Of a stretch of 38,449 nucleotides of DNA, positions 33,501-38,449 are shown one piece after another. The notes below the pieces were generated by a model that was not told the DNA's origin, did not search any database, and saw nothing but the letters and a program-made list of their open reading frames with translations. Within the stretch, counting starts at the first letter, position 1, and every line of letters starts with the position of its first letter. A program made the position numbers and the translations under genes. This stretch comes from Escherichia phage T7, in the sequence record LR745706. One strand, written 5' to 3'.

Positions 33501-34552
33501 TAGGGACCTTGAAGTATTCAACACAGGAACTGGCTGCTCGCTCTCCGTGGACTAAGCTACTGAACGGAACCACTAACTACCTTCTGGATGCTGCGCGTCA
33601 AGGTATGCTTGGGGATGTTATTAGTGCCACCCTAACAGGTAAGACTACCCGCTGGGAGAAAGAAGGCTTCCTTCGTGGTGCCTCCGTAACTCCTGAGCAG
33701 ATGGCTGGCATCAAGTCTCTCATCAAGGAACATATGGTACGCGGTGAGGACGGGAAGTTTACCGTTAAGGACAAGCAAGCGTTCTCTATGGACCCACGGG
33801 CTATGGACTTATGGAGACTGGCTGACAAGGTAGCTGATGAGGCAATGCTGCGTCCACATAAGGTGTCCTTACAGGATTCCCATGCGTTCGGAGCACTAGG
33901 TAAGATGGTTATGCAGTTTAAGTCTTTCACTATCAAGTCCCTTAACTCTAAGTTCCTGCGAACCTTCTATGATGGATACAAGAACAACCGAGCGATTGAC
34001 GCTGCGCTGAGCATCATCACCTCTATGGGTCTCGCTGGTGGTTTCTATGCTATGGCTGCACACGTCAAAGCATACGCTCTGCCTAAGGAGAAACGTAAGG
34101 AGTACTTGGAGCGTGCACTGGACCCAACCATGATTGCCCACGCTGCGTTATCTCGTAGTTCTCAATTGGGTGCTCCTTTGGCTATGGTTGACCTAGTTGG
34201 TGGTGTTTTAGGGTTCGAGTCCTCCAAGATGGCTCGCTCTACGATTCTACCTAAGGACACCGTGAAGGAACGTGACCCAAACAAACCGTACACCTCTAGA
34301 GAGGTAATGGGCGCTATGGGTTCAAACCTTCTGGAACAGATGCCTTCGGCTGGCTTTGTGGCTAACGTAGGGGCTACCTTAATGAATGCTGCTGGCGTGG
34401 TCAACTCACCTAATAAAGCAACCGAGCAGGACTTCATGACTGGTCTTATGAACTCCACAAAAGAGTTAGTACCGAACGACCCATTGACTCAACAGCTTGT
34501 GTTGAAGATTTATGAGGCGAACGGTGTTAACTTGAGGGAGCGTAGGAAATAA
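30596..34552 (+). CDS. 16: Internal virion protein D (gp16) with N-terminal lytic transglycosylase domain
   Basis: ORF track 1318 aa; N-terminal SLT-like motifs (TESRFVPTAKSKTGPLGMMQF...AYNQGEG). Confidence 0.97.
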   Translation: MDKYDKNVPSDYDGLFQKAADANGVSYDLLRKVAWTESRFVPTAKSKTGPLGMMQFTKATAKALGLRVTDGPDDDRLNPELAINAAAKQLAGLVGKFDGDELKAALAYNQGEGRLGNPQLEAYSKGDFASISEEGRNYMRNLLDVAKSPMAGQLETFGGITPKGKGIPAEVGLAGIGHKQKVTQELPESTSFDVKGIEQEATAKPFAKDFWETHGETLDEYNSRSTFFGFKNAAEAELSNSVAGMAFRAGRLDNGFDVFKDTITPTRWNSHIWTPEELEKIRTEVKNPAYINVVTGGSPENLDDLIKLANENFENDSRAAEAGLGAKLSAGIIGAGVDPLSYVPMVGVTGKGFKLINKALVVGAESAALNVASEGLRTSVAGGDADYAGAALGGFVFGAGMSAISDAVAAGLKRSKPEAEFDNEFIGPMMRLEARETARNANSADLSRMNTENMKFEGEHNGVPYEDLPTERGAVVLHDGSVLSASNPINPKTLKEFSEVDPEKAARGIKLAGFTEIGLKTLGSDDADIRRVAIDLVRSPTGMQSGASGKFGATASDIHERLHGTDQRTYNDLYKAMSDAMKDPEFSTGGAKMSREETRYTIYRRAALAIERPELQKALTPSERIVMDIIKRHFDTKRELMENPAIFGNTKAVSIFPESRHKGTYVPHVYDRHAKALMIQRYGAEGLQEGIARSWMNSYVSRPEVKARVDEMLKELHGVKEVTPEMVEKYAMDKAYGISHSDQFTNSSIIEENIEGLVGIENNSFLEARNLFDSDLSITMPDGQQFSVNDLRDFDMFRIMPAYDRRVNGDIAIMGSTGKTTKELKDEILALKAKAEGDGKKTGEVHALMDTVKILTGRARRNQDTVWETSLRAINDLGFFAKNAYMGAQNITEIAGMIVTGNVRALGHGIPILRDTLYKSKPVSAKELKELHASLFGKEVDQLIRPKRADIVQRLREATDTGPAVANIVGTLKYSTQELAARSPWTKLLNGTTNYLLDAARQGMLGDVISATLTGKTTRWEKEGFLRGASVTPEQMAGIKSLIKEHMVRGEDGKFTVKDKQAFSMDPRAMDLWRLADKVADEAMLRPHKVSLQDSHAFGALGKMVMQFKSFTIKSLNSKFLRTFYDGYKNNRAIDAALSIITSMGLAGGFYAMAAHVKAYALPKEKRKEYLERALDPTMIAHAALSRSSQLGAPLAMVDLVGGVLGFESSKMARSTILPKDTVKERDPNKPYTSREVMGAMGSNLLEQMPSAGFVANVGATLMNAAGVVNSPNKATEQDFMTGLMNSTKELVPNDPLTQQLVLKIYEANGVNLRERRK

Positions 34553-34572
34553 TACGACTCACTATAGGGAGA
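34550..34572 (+). promoter_or_regulatory. T7 promoter phi17 (class III), here driving trxA
   Basis: taatacgactcactatagggaga followed by the native gene 17 leader gaggcgaaataatcttctccctgtagtctcttagatttactttaaggaggtcaaATG. Confidence 0.92.
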
Positions 34573-34624
34573 GGCGAAATAATCTTCTCCCTGTAGTCTC
34601 TTAGATTTACTTTAAGGAGGTCAA

Positions 34625-34954
34625 ATGAGCGATAAAATCATTCACCTGACCGATGACTCTTTTGATACCGACGTGCTGAAAGCTGATGGTGCAATTCTGG
34701 TTGATTTCTGGGCAGAGTGGTGCGGCCCTTGCAAAATGATCGCTCCAATCCTGGACGAAATTGCGGACGAATATCAGGGTAAGCTGACTGTGGCCAAACT
34801 GAACATTGACCAGAACCCTGGCACCGCACCGAAATACGGTATCCGTGGCATCCCAACTCTGCTGCTGTTCAAAAACGGTGAAGTGGCAGCAACCAAAGTA
34901 GGCGCTCTGTCTAAAGGCCAACTGAAAGAGTTCCTGGACGCCAACCTGGCTTAA
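34625..34954 (+). CDS. trxA: Thioredoxin 1 (E. coli TrxA protein), at the position normally occupied by tail-fibre gene 17
   Basis: ORF track 109 aa, [109 protein letters not shown], which I recognise as E. coli thioredoxin with the WCGPC active site. It uses the gene 17 promoter and ribosome-binding site. No gp17-like ORF exists anywhere in the window. Confidence 0.97.
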
Positions 34955-35015
34955 TGATTGGTAAATCACAAGGAAAGACGTGTAGTCCACGGATGGACTC
35001 TCAAGGAGGTACAAG

Positions 35016-35219
35016 GTGCTATCATTAGACTTTAACAACGAATTGATTAAGGCTGCTCCAATTGTTGGGACGGGTGTAGCAGATGTTAGTGCTCGACTGT
35101 TCTTTGGGTTAAGCCTTAACGAATGGTTCTACGTTGCTGCTATCGCCTACACAGTGGTTCAGATTGGTGCCAAGGTAGTCGATAAGATGATTGACTGGAA
35201 GAAAGCCAATAAGGAGTGA
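35016..35219 (+). CDS. 17.5: Holin (gp17.5)
   Basis: ORF track 67 aa with a GTG start; MLSLDFNNELIKAAPIVGTGVADVSARLFFGLSLNEWFYVAAIAYTVVQIGAK, one hydrophobic segment. Confidence 0.9.
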   Translation: MLSLDFNNELIKAAPIVGTGVADVSARLFFGLSLNEWFYVAAIAYTVVQIGAKVVDKMIDWKKANKE

Positions 35220-35224
35220 TATGT

Positions 35225-35494
35225 ATGGAAAAGGATAAGAGCCTTATTACATTCTTAGAGATGTTGGACACTGCGATGGCTCAGCGTATGCTTGCGGACC
35301 TTTCGGACCATGAGCGTCGCTCTCCGCAACTCTATAATGCTATTAACAAACTGTTAGACCGCCACAAGTTCCAGATTGGTAAGTTGCAGCCGGATGTTCA
35401 CATCTTAGGTGGCCTTGCTGGTGCTCTTGAAGAGTACAAAGAGAAAGTCGGTGATAACGGTCTTACGGATGATGATATTTACACATTACAGTGA
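35225..35494 (+). CDS. 18: Terminase small subunit (gp18)
   Basis: MEKDKSLITFLEMLDTAMAQRM... in-frame ATG inside ORF 35216..35494; 89 aa. Confidence 0.88.
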   Translation: MEKDKSLITFLEMLDTAMAQRMLADLSDHERRSPQLYNAINKLLDRHKFQIGKLQPDVHILGGLAGALEEYKEKVGDNGLTDDDIYTLQ

Positions 35495-35495
35495 T

Positions 35496-35545
35496 ATACT
35501 CAAGGCCACTACAGATAGTGGTCTTTATGGATGTCATTGTCTATA
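35496..35545 (+). promoter_or_regulatory. RNase III processing hairpin R18.5
   Basis: atactcaaggccactacagatagtggtctttatggatg motif. Confidence 0.6.
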
Positions 35546-35588
35546 CGAGATGCTCCTACGTGAAATCTGAAAGTTAACGGGAGGCATT

Positions 35589-36020
35589 ATGCTAGAATTT
35601 TTACGTAAGCTAATCCCTTGGGTTCTCGCTGGGATGCTATTCGGGTTAGGATGGCATCTAGGGTCAGACTCAATGGACGCTAAATGGAAACAGGAGGTAC
35701 ACAATGAGTACGTTAAGAGAGTTGAGGCTGCGAAGAGCACTCAAAGAGCAATCGATGCGGTATCTGCTAAGTATCAAGAAGACCTTGCCGCGCTGGAAGG
35801 GAGCACTGATAGGATTATTTCTGATTTGCGTAGCGACAATAAGCGGTTGCGCGTCAGAGTCAAAACTACCGGAACCTCCGATGGTCAGTGTGGATTCGAG
35901 CCTGATGGTCGAGCCGAACTTGACGACCGAGATGCTAAACGTATTCTCGCAGTGACCCAGAAGGGTGACGCATGGATTCGTGCGTTACAGGATACTATTC
36001 GTGAACTGCAACGTAAGTAG
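35589..36020 (+). CDS. 18.5: i-spanin (Rz-like, gp18.5)
   Basis: ORF track 143 aa; N-terminal transmembrane segment then a charged coiled-coil-like region. Confidence 0.9.
   Translation: MLEFLRKLIPWVLAGMLFGLGWHLGSDSMDAKWKQEVHNEYVKRVEAAKSTQRAIDAVSAKYQEDLAALEGSTDRIISDLRSDNKRLRVRVKTTGTSDGQCGFEPDGRAELDDRDAKRILAVTQKGDAWIRALQDTIRELQRK
35704..35955 (+). CDS. 18.7: o-spanin (Rz1-like lipoprotein, gp18.7), embedded in gene 18.5 in another frame
   Basis: ORF track 83 aa with the lipobox-like LICVATISGCAS; fully nested within 18.5. Confidence 0.8.
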   Translation: MSTLRELRLRRALKEQSMRYLLSIKKTLPRWKGALIGLFLICVATISGCASESKLPEPPMVSVDSSLMVEPNLTTEMLNVFSQ

Positions 36021-36041
36021 GAAATCAAGTAAGGAGGCAAT

Positions 36042-37802
36042 GTGTCTACTCAATCCAATCGTAATGCGCTCGTAGTGGCGCAACTGAAAGGAGACTTCGT
36101 GGCGTTCCTATTCGTCTTATGGAAGGCGCTAAACCTACCGGTGCCCACTAAGTGTCAGATTGACATGGCTAAGGTGCTGGCGAATGGAGACAACAAGAAG
36201 TTCATCTTACAGGCTTTCCGTGGTATCGGTAAGTCGTTCATCACATGTGCGTTCGTTGTGTGGTCCTTATGGAGAGACCCTCAGTTGAAGATACTTATCG
36301 TATCAGCCTCTAAGGAGCGTGCAGACGCTAACTCCATCTTTATTAAGAACATCATTGACCTGCTGCCATTCCTATCTGAGTTAAAGCCAAGACCCGGACA
36401 GCGTGACTCGGTAATCAGCTTTGATGTAGGCCCAGCCAATCCTGACCACTCTCCTAGTGTGAAATCAGTAGGTATCACTGGTCAGTTAACTGGTAGCCGT
36501 GCTGACATTATCATTGCGGATGACGTTGAGATTCCGTCTAACAGCGCAACTATGGGTGCCCGTGAGAAGCTATGGACTCTGGTTCAGGAGTTCGCTGCGT
36601 TACTTAAACCGCTGCCTTCCTCTCGCGTTATCTACCTTGGTACACCTCAGACAGAGATGACTCTCTATAAGGAACTTGAGGATAACCGTGGGTACACAAC
36701 CATTATCTGGCCTGCTCTGTACCCAAGGACACGTGAAGAGAACCTCTATTACTCACAGCGTCTTGCTCCTATGTTACGCGCTGAGTACGATGAGAACCCT
36801 GAGGCACTTGCTGGGACTCCAACAGACCCAGTGCGCTTTGACCGTGATGACCTGCGCGAGCGTGAGTTGGAATACGGTAAGGCTGGCTTTACGCTACAGT
36901 TCATGCTTAACCCTAACCTTAGTGATGCCGAGAAGTACCCGCTGAGGCTTCGTGACGCTATCGTAGCGGCCTTAGACTTAGAGAAGGCCCCAATGCATTA
37001 CCAGTGGCTTCCGAACCGTCAGAACATCATTGAGGACCTTCCTAACGTTGGCCTTAAGGGTGATGACCTGCATACGTACCACGATTGTTCCAACAACTCA
37101 GGTCAGTACCAACAGAAGATTCTGGTCATTGACCCTAGTGGTCGCGGTAAGGACGAAACAGGTTACGCTGTGCTGTACACACTGAACGGTTACATCTACC
37201 TTATGGAAGCTGGAGGTTTCCGTGATGGCTACTCCGATAAGACCCTTGAGTTACTCGCTAAGAAGGCAAAGCAATGGGGAGTCCAGACGGTTGTCTACGA
37301 GAGTAACTTCGGTGACGGTATGTTCGGTAAGGTATTCAGTCCTATCCTTCTTAAACACCACAACTGTGCGATGGAAGAGATTCGTGCCCGTGGTATGAAA
37401 GAGATGCGTATTTGCGATACCCTTGAGCCAGTCATGCAGACTCACCGCCTTGTAATTCGTGATGAGGTCATTAGGGCCGACTACCAGTCCGCTCGTGACG
37501 TAGACGGTAAGCATGACGTTAAGTACTCGTTGTTCTACCAGATGACCCGTATCACTCGTGAGAAAGGCGCTCTGGCTCATGATGACCGATTGGATGCCCT
37601 TGCGTTAGGCATTGAGTATCTCCGTGAGTCCATGCAGTTGGATTCCGTTAAGGTCGAGGGTGAAGTACTTGCTGACTTCCTTGAGGAACACATGATGCGT
37701 CCTACGGTTGCTGCTACGCATATCATTGAGATGTCTGTGGGAGGAGTTGATGTGTACTCTGAGGACGATGAGGGTTACGGTACGTCTTTCATTGAGTGGT
37801 GA
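36042..37802 (+). CDS. 19: Terminase large subunit (gp19)
   Basis: ORF track 586 aa. Confidence 0.97.
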
Positions 37803-37883
37803 TTTATGCATTAGGACTGCATAGGGATGCACTATAGACCACGGATGGTCAGTTCTTTAAGTTACTGAAAAGACACGATAAAT

Positions 37884-37906
37884 TAATACGACTCACTATA
37901 GGGAGA
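37884..37906 (+). promoter_or_regulatory. T7 promoter phiOR
   Basis: attaatacgactcactatagggagag. Confidence 0.9.
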
Positions 37907-38060
37907 GGAGGGACGAAAGGTTACTATATAGATACTGAATGAATACTTATAGAGTGCATAAAGTATGCATAATGGTGTACCTAGAGTGACCTCTAAGAAT
38001 GGTGATTATATTGTATTAGTATCACCTTAACTTAAGGACCAACATAAAGGGAGGAGACTC

Positions 38061-38210
38061 ATGTTCCGCTTATTGTTGAACCTACTGCGGCATAGAGTCA
38101 CCTACCGATTTCTTGTGGTACTTTGTGCTGCCCTTGGGTACGCATCTCTTACTGGAGACCTCAGTTCACTGGAGTCTGTCGTTTGCTCTATACTCACTTG
38201 TAGCGATTAG
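38061..38210 (+). CDS. 19.5: gp19.5 small hydrophobic protein
   Basis: ATG after GGGAGGAG; 49 codons (MFRLLLNLLRHRVTYRFLVVLCAALGYASL...). Confidence 0.65.
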   Translation: MFRLLLNLLRHRVTYRFLVVLCAALGYASLTGDLSSLESVVCSILTCSD

Positions 38211-38269
38211 GGTCTTCCTGACCGACTGATGGCTCACCGAGGGATTCAGCGGTATGATTGCATCACACC

Positions 38270-38449
38270 ACTTCATCCCTATAGAGTCAAGTCCTAAGGT
38301 ATACCCATAAAGAGCCTCTAATGGTCTATCCTAAGGTCTATACCTAAAGATAGGCCATCCTATCAGTGTCACCTAAAGAGGGTCTTAGAGAGGGCCTATG
38401 GAGTTCCTATAGGGTCCTTTAAAATATACCATAAAAATCTGAGTGACTA
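38270..38449 (+). repeat. Right-end short repeat region (CCTAAAG / CCTAAGG / CCTATAG units) before the right terminal repeat
   Basis: tcctaaggtatacccataaagagcc...tatcctaaggtctatacctaaagataggcc...tcacctaaagagg; the window ends where the right terminal repeat would start. Confidence 0.7.

Follow-up and report, generated by a model that had tools for sequence, protein, structure and literature searches.

A T7 genome with a recoded trxA gene in place of tail-fibre gene 17 corresponds to a published laboratory-made phage, probably phAG_7

How did a T7 genome come to carry a thioredoxin gene where its tail-fibre gene should be? The question is raised by sequence record LR745706, a 38,449-nucleotide stretch of Escherichia phage T7 DNA that was analysed over its full length (the window). 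An initial annotation, made from the letters alone, had claimed that gene 17 is missing, that trxA sits in its place, and that the genome looks like a deliberately engineered host-range or biocontainment chassis. Alignment to LR745710, a wild-type T7 laboratory stock, bore out the claim of a clean substitution with T7 sequence on both flanks: identity was 100% over positions 1..34627 and 34957..38449, with a shared prefix of exactly 34627 nt and a shared suffix of exactly 3493 nt. The exchange runs precisely from the start codon to the stop codon of gene 17, replacing the 1662 nt of the wild-type gene (ATG to TAA) with 333 nt, and the net length difference is −1329 nt (333 minus 1662), an exact value for a shortfall that had been estimated at about 1.33 kb. 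No gp17 remnant was found in the window by tblastn with gp17 (best E=1.7), and a blastn-short search with gene 17 DNA returned only chance words of 13-17 nt. The T7 backbone outside the locus is unchanged relative to LR745710, with genes 11 and 12 intact and no further differences detected outside the swap, and both genomes differ from NC_001604 by an extra A at 1897 and a C>T change at 24158. The window is without the right terminal repeat copy, which was collapsed in a short-read SPAdes assembly.

Table 1. Features of the exchanged locus and its flanks (positions in the window).
Feature	Coordinates	Strand	Basis
Left homology arm HR1 of the HR1-trxA-HR2 g-block	34525..34624	+	g-block alignment; identical to LR745710
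T7 class III promoter phi17, TAATACGACTCACTATAGGGAGA	34550..34572	+	exact match to 23-mer consensus
Native gene 17 5′ leader	34567..34624	+	same as wild type through ATG
24-nt RBS+ATG block, GATTTACTTTAAGGAGGTCAAATG	34604..34627	+	single copy in window
Synthetic trxA with synonymous recoding (109 codons + TAA); product, E. coli thioredoxin 1	34625..34954	+	ORF, profile, identity
Second in-frame stop TGA (TAATGA double stop), right junction	34955..34957	+	comparison with wild-type junction
Right homology arm HR2	34958..35048	+	g-block alignment; Table S2 HR2 sequence; 100% identity with LR745710
Holin gene 17.5, GTG start at 35016, 67 aa, intact, native	35016..35219	+	ORF listing

The 333-nt insert consists of a 109-codon trxA ORF (34625..34954) and an additional stop codon (TAATGA). 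The A that closes this TGA (34955..34957) is also the base with which the native stop codon of gene 17 ends, so that the right junction reads ...CTGGCTTAATGATTGGTAAATC in the window versus ...AACGAGTAATTGGTAAATC in wild type. Downstream, as had been claimed, the spacer between genes 17 and 17.5 and then the holin gene follow in their native form, 100% identical to wild type; the counterpart of gene 17.5 in NC_001604 is CDS 36344..36547, annotated holin. Upstream, the phi17 promoter and leader were found to be retained, again as the initial annotation had it. The promoter overlaps the stop codon of gene 16 (34550..34552; ORF 30596..34552), and its transcription +1 is G 34567, whose counterpart in NC_001604, base 34566, is annotated as promoter phi17. 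Leader and RBS (...TTTAAGGAGGTCAA) are those of native gene 17 as far as the ATG at 34625; the Shine-Dalgarno sequence that they contain, TAAGGAGGT, now precedes trxA instead of gene 17. A predicted 5′ hairpin, GGGAGAGG...CUUCUCCC, is present in wild-type and engineered contexts alike, and the leader with the first codons had predicted folding energies of -24.1 (wild type) and -26.8 kcal/mol (engineered), with z scores of about -1.6 and -2.1, respectively. Both structures are modest and say little about access to the RBS, the function of which is shown instead by plaque data in print. A scan of the locus identified no new sigma-70 promoters or intrinsic terminators above chance.

The product of the ORF is, as claimed from the translation, E. 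coli thioredoxin 1. It is identical to E. coli TrxA at 109/109 residues (PDB 6n7w chain I; WP_001280776), contains the WCGPC active site, and scored 249.3 bits over residues 1-109 of 109 against the NCBIfam TrxA equivalog NF006898, for which the curated cut-off is 138 bits. Residues 2-109 are the mature 108-residue thioredoxin chain of 1t7p/1skr (chain B), and no residue separates the product from the thioredoxin chain of 6n7w and 1t7p, structures of the T7 replisome and polymerase, the gp5-binding surface included.

Despite encoding TrxA, the cassette does not match the native E. coli trxA DNA sequence. Nucleotide identity was 86.1% to the native gene in all of the complete E. coli genomes searched (5,426/5,426), with none closer. 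The 46 differences fall in 45 codons and are all synonymous (46 synonymous, 0 non-synonymous); the codon changes go in both directions, and GC content is unchanged. All-synonymous, bidirectional changes at constant GC content are the mark of synthetic recoding rather than divergence, and the gene is a synthetic recoding of E. coli trxA. The recoded gene was not found in a plasmid collection, in which only native trxA was matched, at 85-86% identity. Removal of cloning sites was ruled out as the purpose of the recoding, since both native and recoded genes are free of the sites tested (EcoRI, XbaI, SpeI, PstI, NotI, BsaI, BbsI, BsmBI and SapI). The synonymous recoding and the TAATGA double stop are the two features that the initial annotation had passed over.

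A construct of this structure is already known, having been published in 2020 (Grigonyte et al., Viruses 12:193; PMC7077284; sequencing project PRJEB35760), where it appears as a gene 17 knockout inside a proof-of-concept study of trxA-based selection and of tail-fibre engineering. We infer, with a probability of roughly 95%, that the accession analysed here is the laboratory-made T7 phage phAG_7 (T7 Δg17::trxA) of that study. The g-block in Fig. S7 of PMC7077284 aligned to window positions 34525..35048 at 520/524 positions, the remaining 4 being single-base dropouts and none a mismatch; 2 of the 4 would frameshift trxA, and the dropouts were therefore taken as machine-reading errors from the PDF. 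Both of its arms are native T7 sequence: the left one takes in the last part of gene 16, promoter phi17 and the leader of gene 17, and the right one the spacer between genes 17 and 17.5 plus the beginning of gene 17.5. The primers of Table S3 reproduce both junctions, the right-junction primer being ACGCCAACCTGGCTTAATGATTGGTAAATCAC, and the trxA g-block forward primers in the same table contain the 24-nt block GATTTACTTTAAGGAGGTCAAATG. Although Table S2 puts the RBS B0034 before trxA, B0034 is absent from the window and from LR745707. The wild type and four mutants were sequenced in that study, the fourth mutant being unnamed in the paper; additional SNVs are given for phAG_3, phAG_4 and phPM only, with none for phAG_7 in Table S6, and the window has no additional SNVs relative to LR745710. 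Parent polymorphisms, recoded trxA, junctions, g-block and absence of SNVs thus all agree between phAG_7 and the window, and no difference was detected. The direct phi17 leader-trxA junction had no match among the phage records searched.

The published design suggests how the genome would have been made and would work. The recoded ORF, flanked in a synthetic g-block by T7 arms of about 100 bp each, was cloned in pSB6A1 to give pAG29; T7 infecting pAG29-bearing cells would have recombined with the plasmid, so that trxA and the extra stop codon took the place of gene 17 from ATG to stop. Transcription of trxA would probably depend on T7 RNA polymerase at the class III phi17 promoter and on read-through from upstream promoters, and translation would probably start from the native gene 17 RBS. 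By a mechanism that is already known, phage-made thioredoxin would bind gp5, the T7 DNA polymerase, and make it processive, so that the recombinant could replicate in E. coli BW25113 ΔtrxA and be positively selected, a design that agrees with PMC7077284 and with the selection-marker role proposed for trxA from the sequence. In the absence of gene 17, progeny would be fibre-less unless gp17 came from a helper plasmid (pAG30/pAG31). A complemented particle, combining wild-type fibres with a fibre-less genome, would thus be expected to complete one infection and then to yield non-infective progeny if no helper were present.

Selection efficiency and complementation dependence are taken from PMC7077284; what we observed ourselves is how the sequence is arranged, that it matches the published design, that its product is E. 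coli TrxA and that the gene is recoded. In that study, the selection host was BW25113 ΔtrxA carrying pAG30/pAG31 with wild-type tail fibres (Methods 2.8), in line with the claim that gp17 must be supplied in trans; wild-type T7 progeny were undetected on ΔtrxA cells (a reduction of about 10^10-fold), correct mutants were recovered in 10/10 plaques (Table S5), and, when no helper was provided, every mutant except phPM was non-infective. Deliberate engineering, as read from the sequence at the outset, is upheld by this design. The biocontainment label fits an implication of the genotype; the authors do not use it, and it is not the purpose that they give.

The recoded trxA was 100% identical only to the cassettes of LR745707, LR745708 and LR745709 (Grigonyte et al. 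2020). The first two are T7 gp17 1-466::BPP-1 Mtd fusions and the third is the T7::Yep-phi gp17 fusion, phPM. Like the window, all three combine the T7 stock, the recoded trxA with TAATGA, and a downstream junction into the 17/17.5 intergenic region. In contrast, they keep a chimeric gene 17, after which trxA follows with another copy of the gene 17 RBS, whereas the window has no gene 17 and a single RBS. In LR745707, the block GATTTACTTTAAGGAGGTCAAATG accordingly occurs twice, at positions 34602 and 36687, as a direct repeat 2085 bp apart.

This arrangement raises the possibility that the window arose by spontaneous deletion in a chimeric tail-fibre phage (phAG_1, 2, 5 or 6) through the 24-bp repeats, a route that we consider improbable. 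Recombination between the two copies, of which one precedes gene 17 and the other trxA, would remove the chimeric gene, which would be dispensable while gp17 is supplied in trans. T7 is known to delete stretches enclosed by short direct repeats with ease, and under complementation a reduced genome length would carry no penalty. Moreover, the 24-bp repeats of LR745707 are perfect, and collapse between them gives exactly the window sequence. Deletion and the pAG29 cross thus have an identical end product, and sequence alone does not separate the two routes. However, a dedicated g-block and pAG29 are documented for precisely this structure, which was carried by 10/10 plaques, and none of the SNVs that mark phAG_3, phAG_4 and phPM, the chimeras that were sequenced, is present in the window. 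Were the deletion route true, an RBS copy and trxA placed downstream of gene 17 would be genetically unstable under trans-complementation, and the published cassette design would tend to lose its engineered fibre. We favour the documented cross with pAG29 as the origin of the genome.

An assembly artefact, in which T7 reads and reads from a trxA plasmid or the host were joined into a chimeric contig and gene 17 was dropped by mis-assembly, is still less probable. The genome is a short-read SPAdes assembly with a collapsed terminal repeat, but both junctions lie exactly at the designed positions, in agreement with the primers and the g-block, and the phage was checked by PCR and Sanger sequencing (PMC7077284). 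In addition, the host used was without trxA, and the plasmid insert already has the structure of the window. On these grounds we reject an artefact. Finally, natural capture of host trxA by illegitimate recombination with loss of gene 17, although the encoded protein is identical to host thioredoxin, redoxin genes sometimes occur in phages and T7 needs host thioredoxin, is rejected as vanishingly improbable by DNA that is 86.1% identical to trxA of all 5,426 E. coli genomes and closer to none, by its 46 synonymous and 0 non-synonymous changes in both codon directions at unchanged GC content, by the exact start-to-stop exchange with an added TGA, by the absence of an essential tail-fibre gene, which leaves a phage that cannot propagate in nature, and by the equality of the locus with the published synthetic g-block.

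The genome assigned here to phAG_7 also belongs among other engineered T7 phages. The trxA-replacement strategy for T7 gene 17 predates 2020 and comes from the Qimron laboratory, whose trxA marker knockouts of T7 genes 0.4, 11, 12 and 17 are outlined by way of PMC7077284. As described in PMC7077284 and PMC9981461, these knockouts resemble the window in that homologous recombination puts trxA in the place of the target gene, BW25113 ΔtrxA serves as the selective host, and a helper provides the tail proteins in trans. This resemblance extends to the transducing-particle chassis T7Δ(gp11-12-17) (Yosef et al. 2017 Mol Cell 66:721; Kiro et al. 2013; Auster et al. 2019), also used by Apjok et al. 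2023 (PMC9981461); unlike the window, it is missing genes 11 and 12 as well and packages plasmids. The ORACLE acceptor phage and T7Δgp17 (Huss et al. 2021, eLife 10:e63775, PMC8043750) likewise have the tail-fibre gene removed, with no plaques unless a gp17 helper plasmid is present and normal plaques when it is. The ORACLE locus differs in having lox71/lox66 around an sfGFP-derived fixed sequence, yeast assembly with Cas9 counter-selection, and no trxA, whereas the window has no lox sites and carries the trxA marker. A study of T7/K1F chimeras (PMC8234382) was rejected as the source of the genome; its strategy is alike, but it is a separate study.

The biological significance of this locus is small: what was built, why, and how it behaves have been in print since 2020. 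The genome is useful as a positive control for scans, its engineered origin having been correctly recognised from raw sequence. It also provides a simple and general signature of synthetic origin: a host protein with 100% amino acid identity whose gene reaches only 86% nucleotide identity with each natural allele, differs from these by synonymous codon changes alone, in both directions, replaces its target exactly from start to stop, and ends in two stop codons. Such a signature could flag synthetic inserts in deposited ‘phage’ records and so avoid their confusion with natural host-gene capture.

The window was aligned by BLAST to the T7 reference NC_001604, the wild-type T7 laboratory stock LR745710 and the engineered sibling LR745707, three complete genomes, and each comparison gave two aligned blocks. 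With LR745710 both blocks were 100% identical (1..34627 to 1..34627 and window 34957..38449 to 36286..39778), and direct comparison gave a common prefix of 34,627 nt, ATG included, and a common suffix of 3,493 nt, with 0 differences outside the swap. The clean substitution between T7 flanks described in the initial annotation is thus borne out, and its length deficit of about 1.33 kb is exactly 1,329 nt, the difference between the window and LR745710. An insert of 333 nt (trxA including its TAA, plus TGA) stands in place of the 1,662 nt of gene 17, and at the right junction the window has …CTGGCTTAATGATTGGTAAATC where wild type has …AACGAGTAATTGGTAAATC. Gene 17 is missing, as had been claimed: the best tblastn match of gp17 to the whole window had E=1.7, short-word blastn with gene 17 DNA returned only 13-17 nt chance matches, and the window's ORF list contained no long tail-fibre-like ORF. 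The class III promoter phi17 and the native gene 17 ribosome binding site (RBS) are intact directly ahead of trxA, and a scan of the locus detected no terminator-like or promoter-like element brought in by the swap.

Features of the locus at which trxA replaces gene 17
Feature	Position	Strand	Source
phi17 promoter TAATACGACTCACTATAGGGAGA	34550..34572	+	read in 34300..35500
gene 17 leader and Shine-Dalgarno (…TTTAAGGAGGTCAA)	up to ATG at 34625	+	sequence read
trxA ORF, 109 codons	34625..34954	+	ORF list
holin gene, 67 aa, GTG start	35016	+	ORF list; next gene after trxA ORF
gene 18, 18.5/18.7, 19	beyond holin gene		ORF list

The two departures of LR745710 from NC_001604 were also present in the window. 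The additional A at 1897, within the region of gene 0.6B (GGACAAGAG > GGAACAAGAG), is a stock polymorphism or reference error and not engineering, because the wild-type stock carries the same A. The C>T change at 24158 (GAGCAATAA > GAGTAATAA), likewise in LR745710, converts the last Gln codon of 10B to a stop and cuts one residue off the frameshift-extended capsid protein; the LR745710 annotation has the 10B CDS end at 24160. The window opens at T7 base 1 and ends at NC_001604 39777, immediately ahead of the 160-bp terminal repeat on the right. As in LR745710 (39,778 bp), only the first repeat copy (1..160) is represented, which is an assembly convention and not a deletion. Six exact copies of the 23-nt class III promoter consensus, all native and unaltered, occur at window 18529, 21849, 22888, 27258, 34550 and 37884; five are annotated in NC_001604 as phi6.5, phi9, phi10, phi13 and phi17, and that at 37884 is phiOR by coordinate offset.

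The product of the inserted ORF is E. coli thioredoxin, as initially reported. It matched the NCBIfam model NF006898 'thioredoxin TrxA' over its full length at 249.3 bits (cut-off 138 bits), was identical to PDB 6n7w chain I at 109/109 residues, and matched the thioredoxin chain in the T7 DNA polymerase complexes 1t7p and 1skr. The DNA encoding it was only 80-90% identical to trxA in every one of 5,426 complete E. coli genomes (top 86.1%), and the plasmid collection held only native alleles at 85-86% identity. Compared codon by codon with one native allele, the proteins are identical and 46 nucleotide differences fall in 45 of 110 codons, all 46 synonymous. Codons are swapped both ways (e.g., three cases each of GAC>GAT and GAT>GAC), the GC content stays the same (50.6% versus 50.3%), and the longest native-identical run is 32 nt. 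This pattern is a synonymous shuffle such as gene-synthesis design tools produce; natural divergence or host-gene capture as the source of the DNA was excluded by it. None of nine common cloning sites was removed by recoding, all being absent from native and recoded trxA alike. The main text of PMC7077284 does not mention codons and the paper does not state a purpose; the recoding may have arisen incidentally when the g-block was designed, or it may have been aimed at limiting homology with native trxA.

Among 50,697 phage records, only LR745707, LR745708 and LR745709 contained the recoded trxA at 100% identity; all three belong to Grigonyte et al. (PMC7077284). Their annotation describes T7 whose tail fibres are chimeric, with gp17 residues 1-466 fused to BPP-1 Mtd or Yep-phi gp17, each fibre gene being followed by 'trxA: thioredoxin TrxA'; the phi17 leader joined directly to trxA was found in none of the 50,697. 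The supplement of that paper was decisive for provenance. Its Figure S7 prints an 'HR1-trxA-HR2 g-block' that agreed with window 34525..35048 at 520 of 524 positions, with 0 mismatches and four single-base dropouts, which we treated as reading errors because the PDF text was machine-read and two of the four would frameshift trxA. Table S3 primers match both junctions (…GATTTACTTTAAGGAGGTCAAATGAG and ACGCCAACCTGGCTTAATGATTGGTAAATCAC…). The authors sequenced the wild type along with four mutants and list extra SNVs only for phAG_3, phAG_4 and phPM (PMC7077284). From these sequence matches we infer that, at the accession level, the window corresponds to phAG_7, the published T7 with gene 17 replaced by trxA. 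The published design supports engineering, as the initial annotation proposed, although 'biocontainment' was its own label and not the authors'. Table S2 places 'RBS (B0034)' ahead of trxA and disagrees with the deposited sequences: B0034 (AAAGAGGAGAAA) is absent from the window and LR745707, in the primers and deposited genomes its place is taken by a copy of the gene 17 RBS of T7 (window 34604..34624), and B0034 occurs in the primer set only for the pAG_30 helper plasmid.

One alternative to a designed cross is spontaneous collapse of a chimeric sibling. The sibling trxA cassette has its own gene 17 RBS copy, creating a perfect 24-bp direct repeat (RBS plus ATG) that flanks the chimeric gene 17 (LR745707 34602..34625 and 36687..36710, 2,085 bp apart; window counterpart 34604..34627), and recombination between the copies would yield the window's exact sequence with loss of the engineered fibre. 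We consider this origin highly improbable, since a dedicated g-block and plasmid exist for this structure and the window has none of the SNVs seen in the three siblings that were sequenced. The repeat nevertheless points to a possible instability of the sibling design that could delete the engineered fibre. We rate an assembly artefact as very unlikely: each junction is the one that was designed, and PCR and Sanger sequencing confirmed the mutants (PMC7077284). Four features refute the idea that T7 picked up trxA from its host in nature: the gene is recoded, it replaces gene 17 exactly from start codon to stop codon, an extra stop follows it, and the sequence agrees with a synthetic design.

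T7 DNA polymerase gp5 requires E. coli thioredoxin as its processivity factor, a requirement supported by solved polymerase complexes because they contain this same protein. Wild-type T7 gave no detectable progeny on BW25113 ΔtrxA, a ∼10^10-fold reduction, and recombinants were selected on ΔtrxA cells with pAG30/pAG31 as the source of wild-type fibres; without complementation all mutants except the T7/Yep-phi fusion were non-infective (PMC7077284). In the designed replacement, trxA mRNA would arise from phi17 and by read-through from upstream T7 promoters, and complemented particles would be able to deliver the genome once, progeny from a helper-less host lacking fibres. RNA folding of the leader and new ORF was uninformative.

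The trxA-replacement strategy predates the published phage: trxA replacement with ΔtrxA selection had already served to knock out genes 0.4, 11, 12 and 17, according to the introduction of PMC7077284, which cites Yosef et al. 2017, Kiro et al. 2013 and Auster et al. 2019. T7 chassis that lack fibres and are complemented in trans are routinely used, among them T7Δ(gp11-12-17), which serves for transducing particles (PMC9981461), and the ORACLE acceptor phage and T7Δgp17, which form no plaques without helper and normal plaques with it but have lox sites plus a stuffer derived from sfGFP instead of trxA (PMC8043750). The engineered construct itself is already published, and what is new here is confined to three small additions: the synonymous recoding of trxA, the B0034 discrepancy in Table S2, and a 24-bp direct repeat in the sibling design through which the engineered fibre could be deleted.
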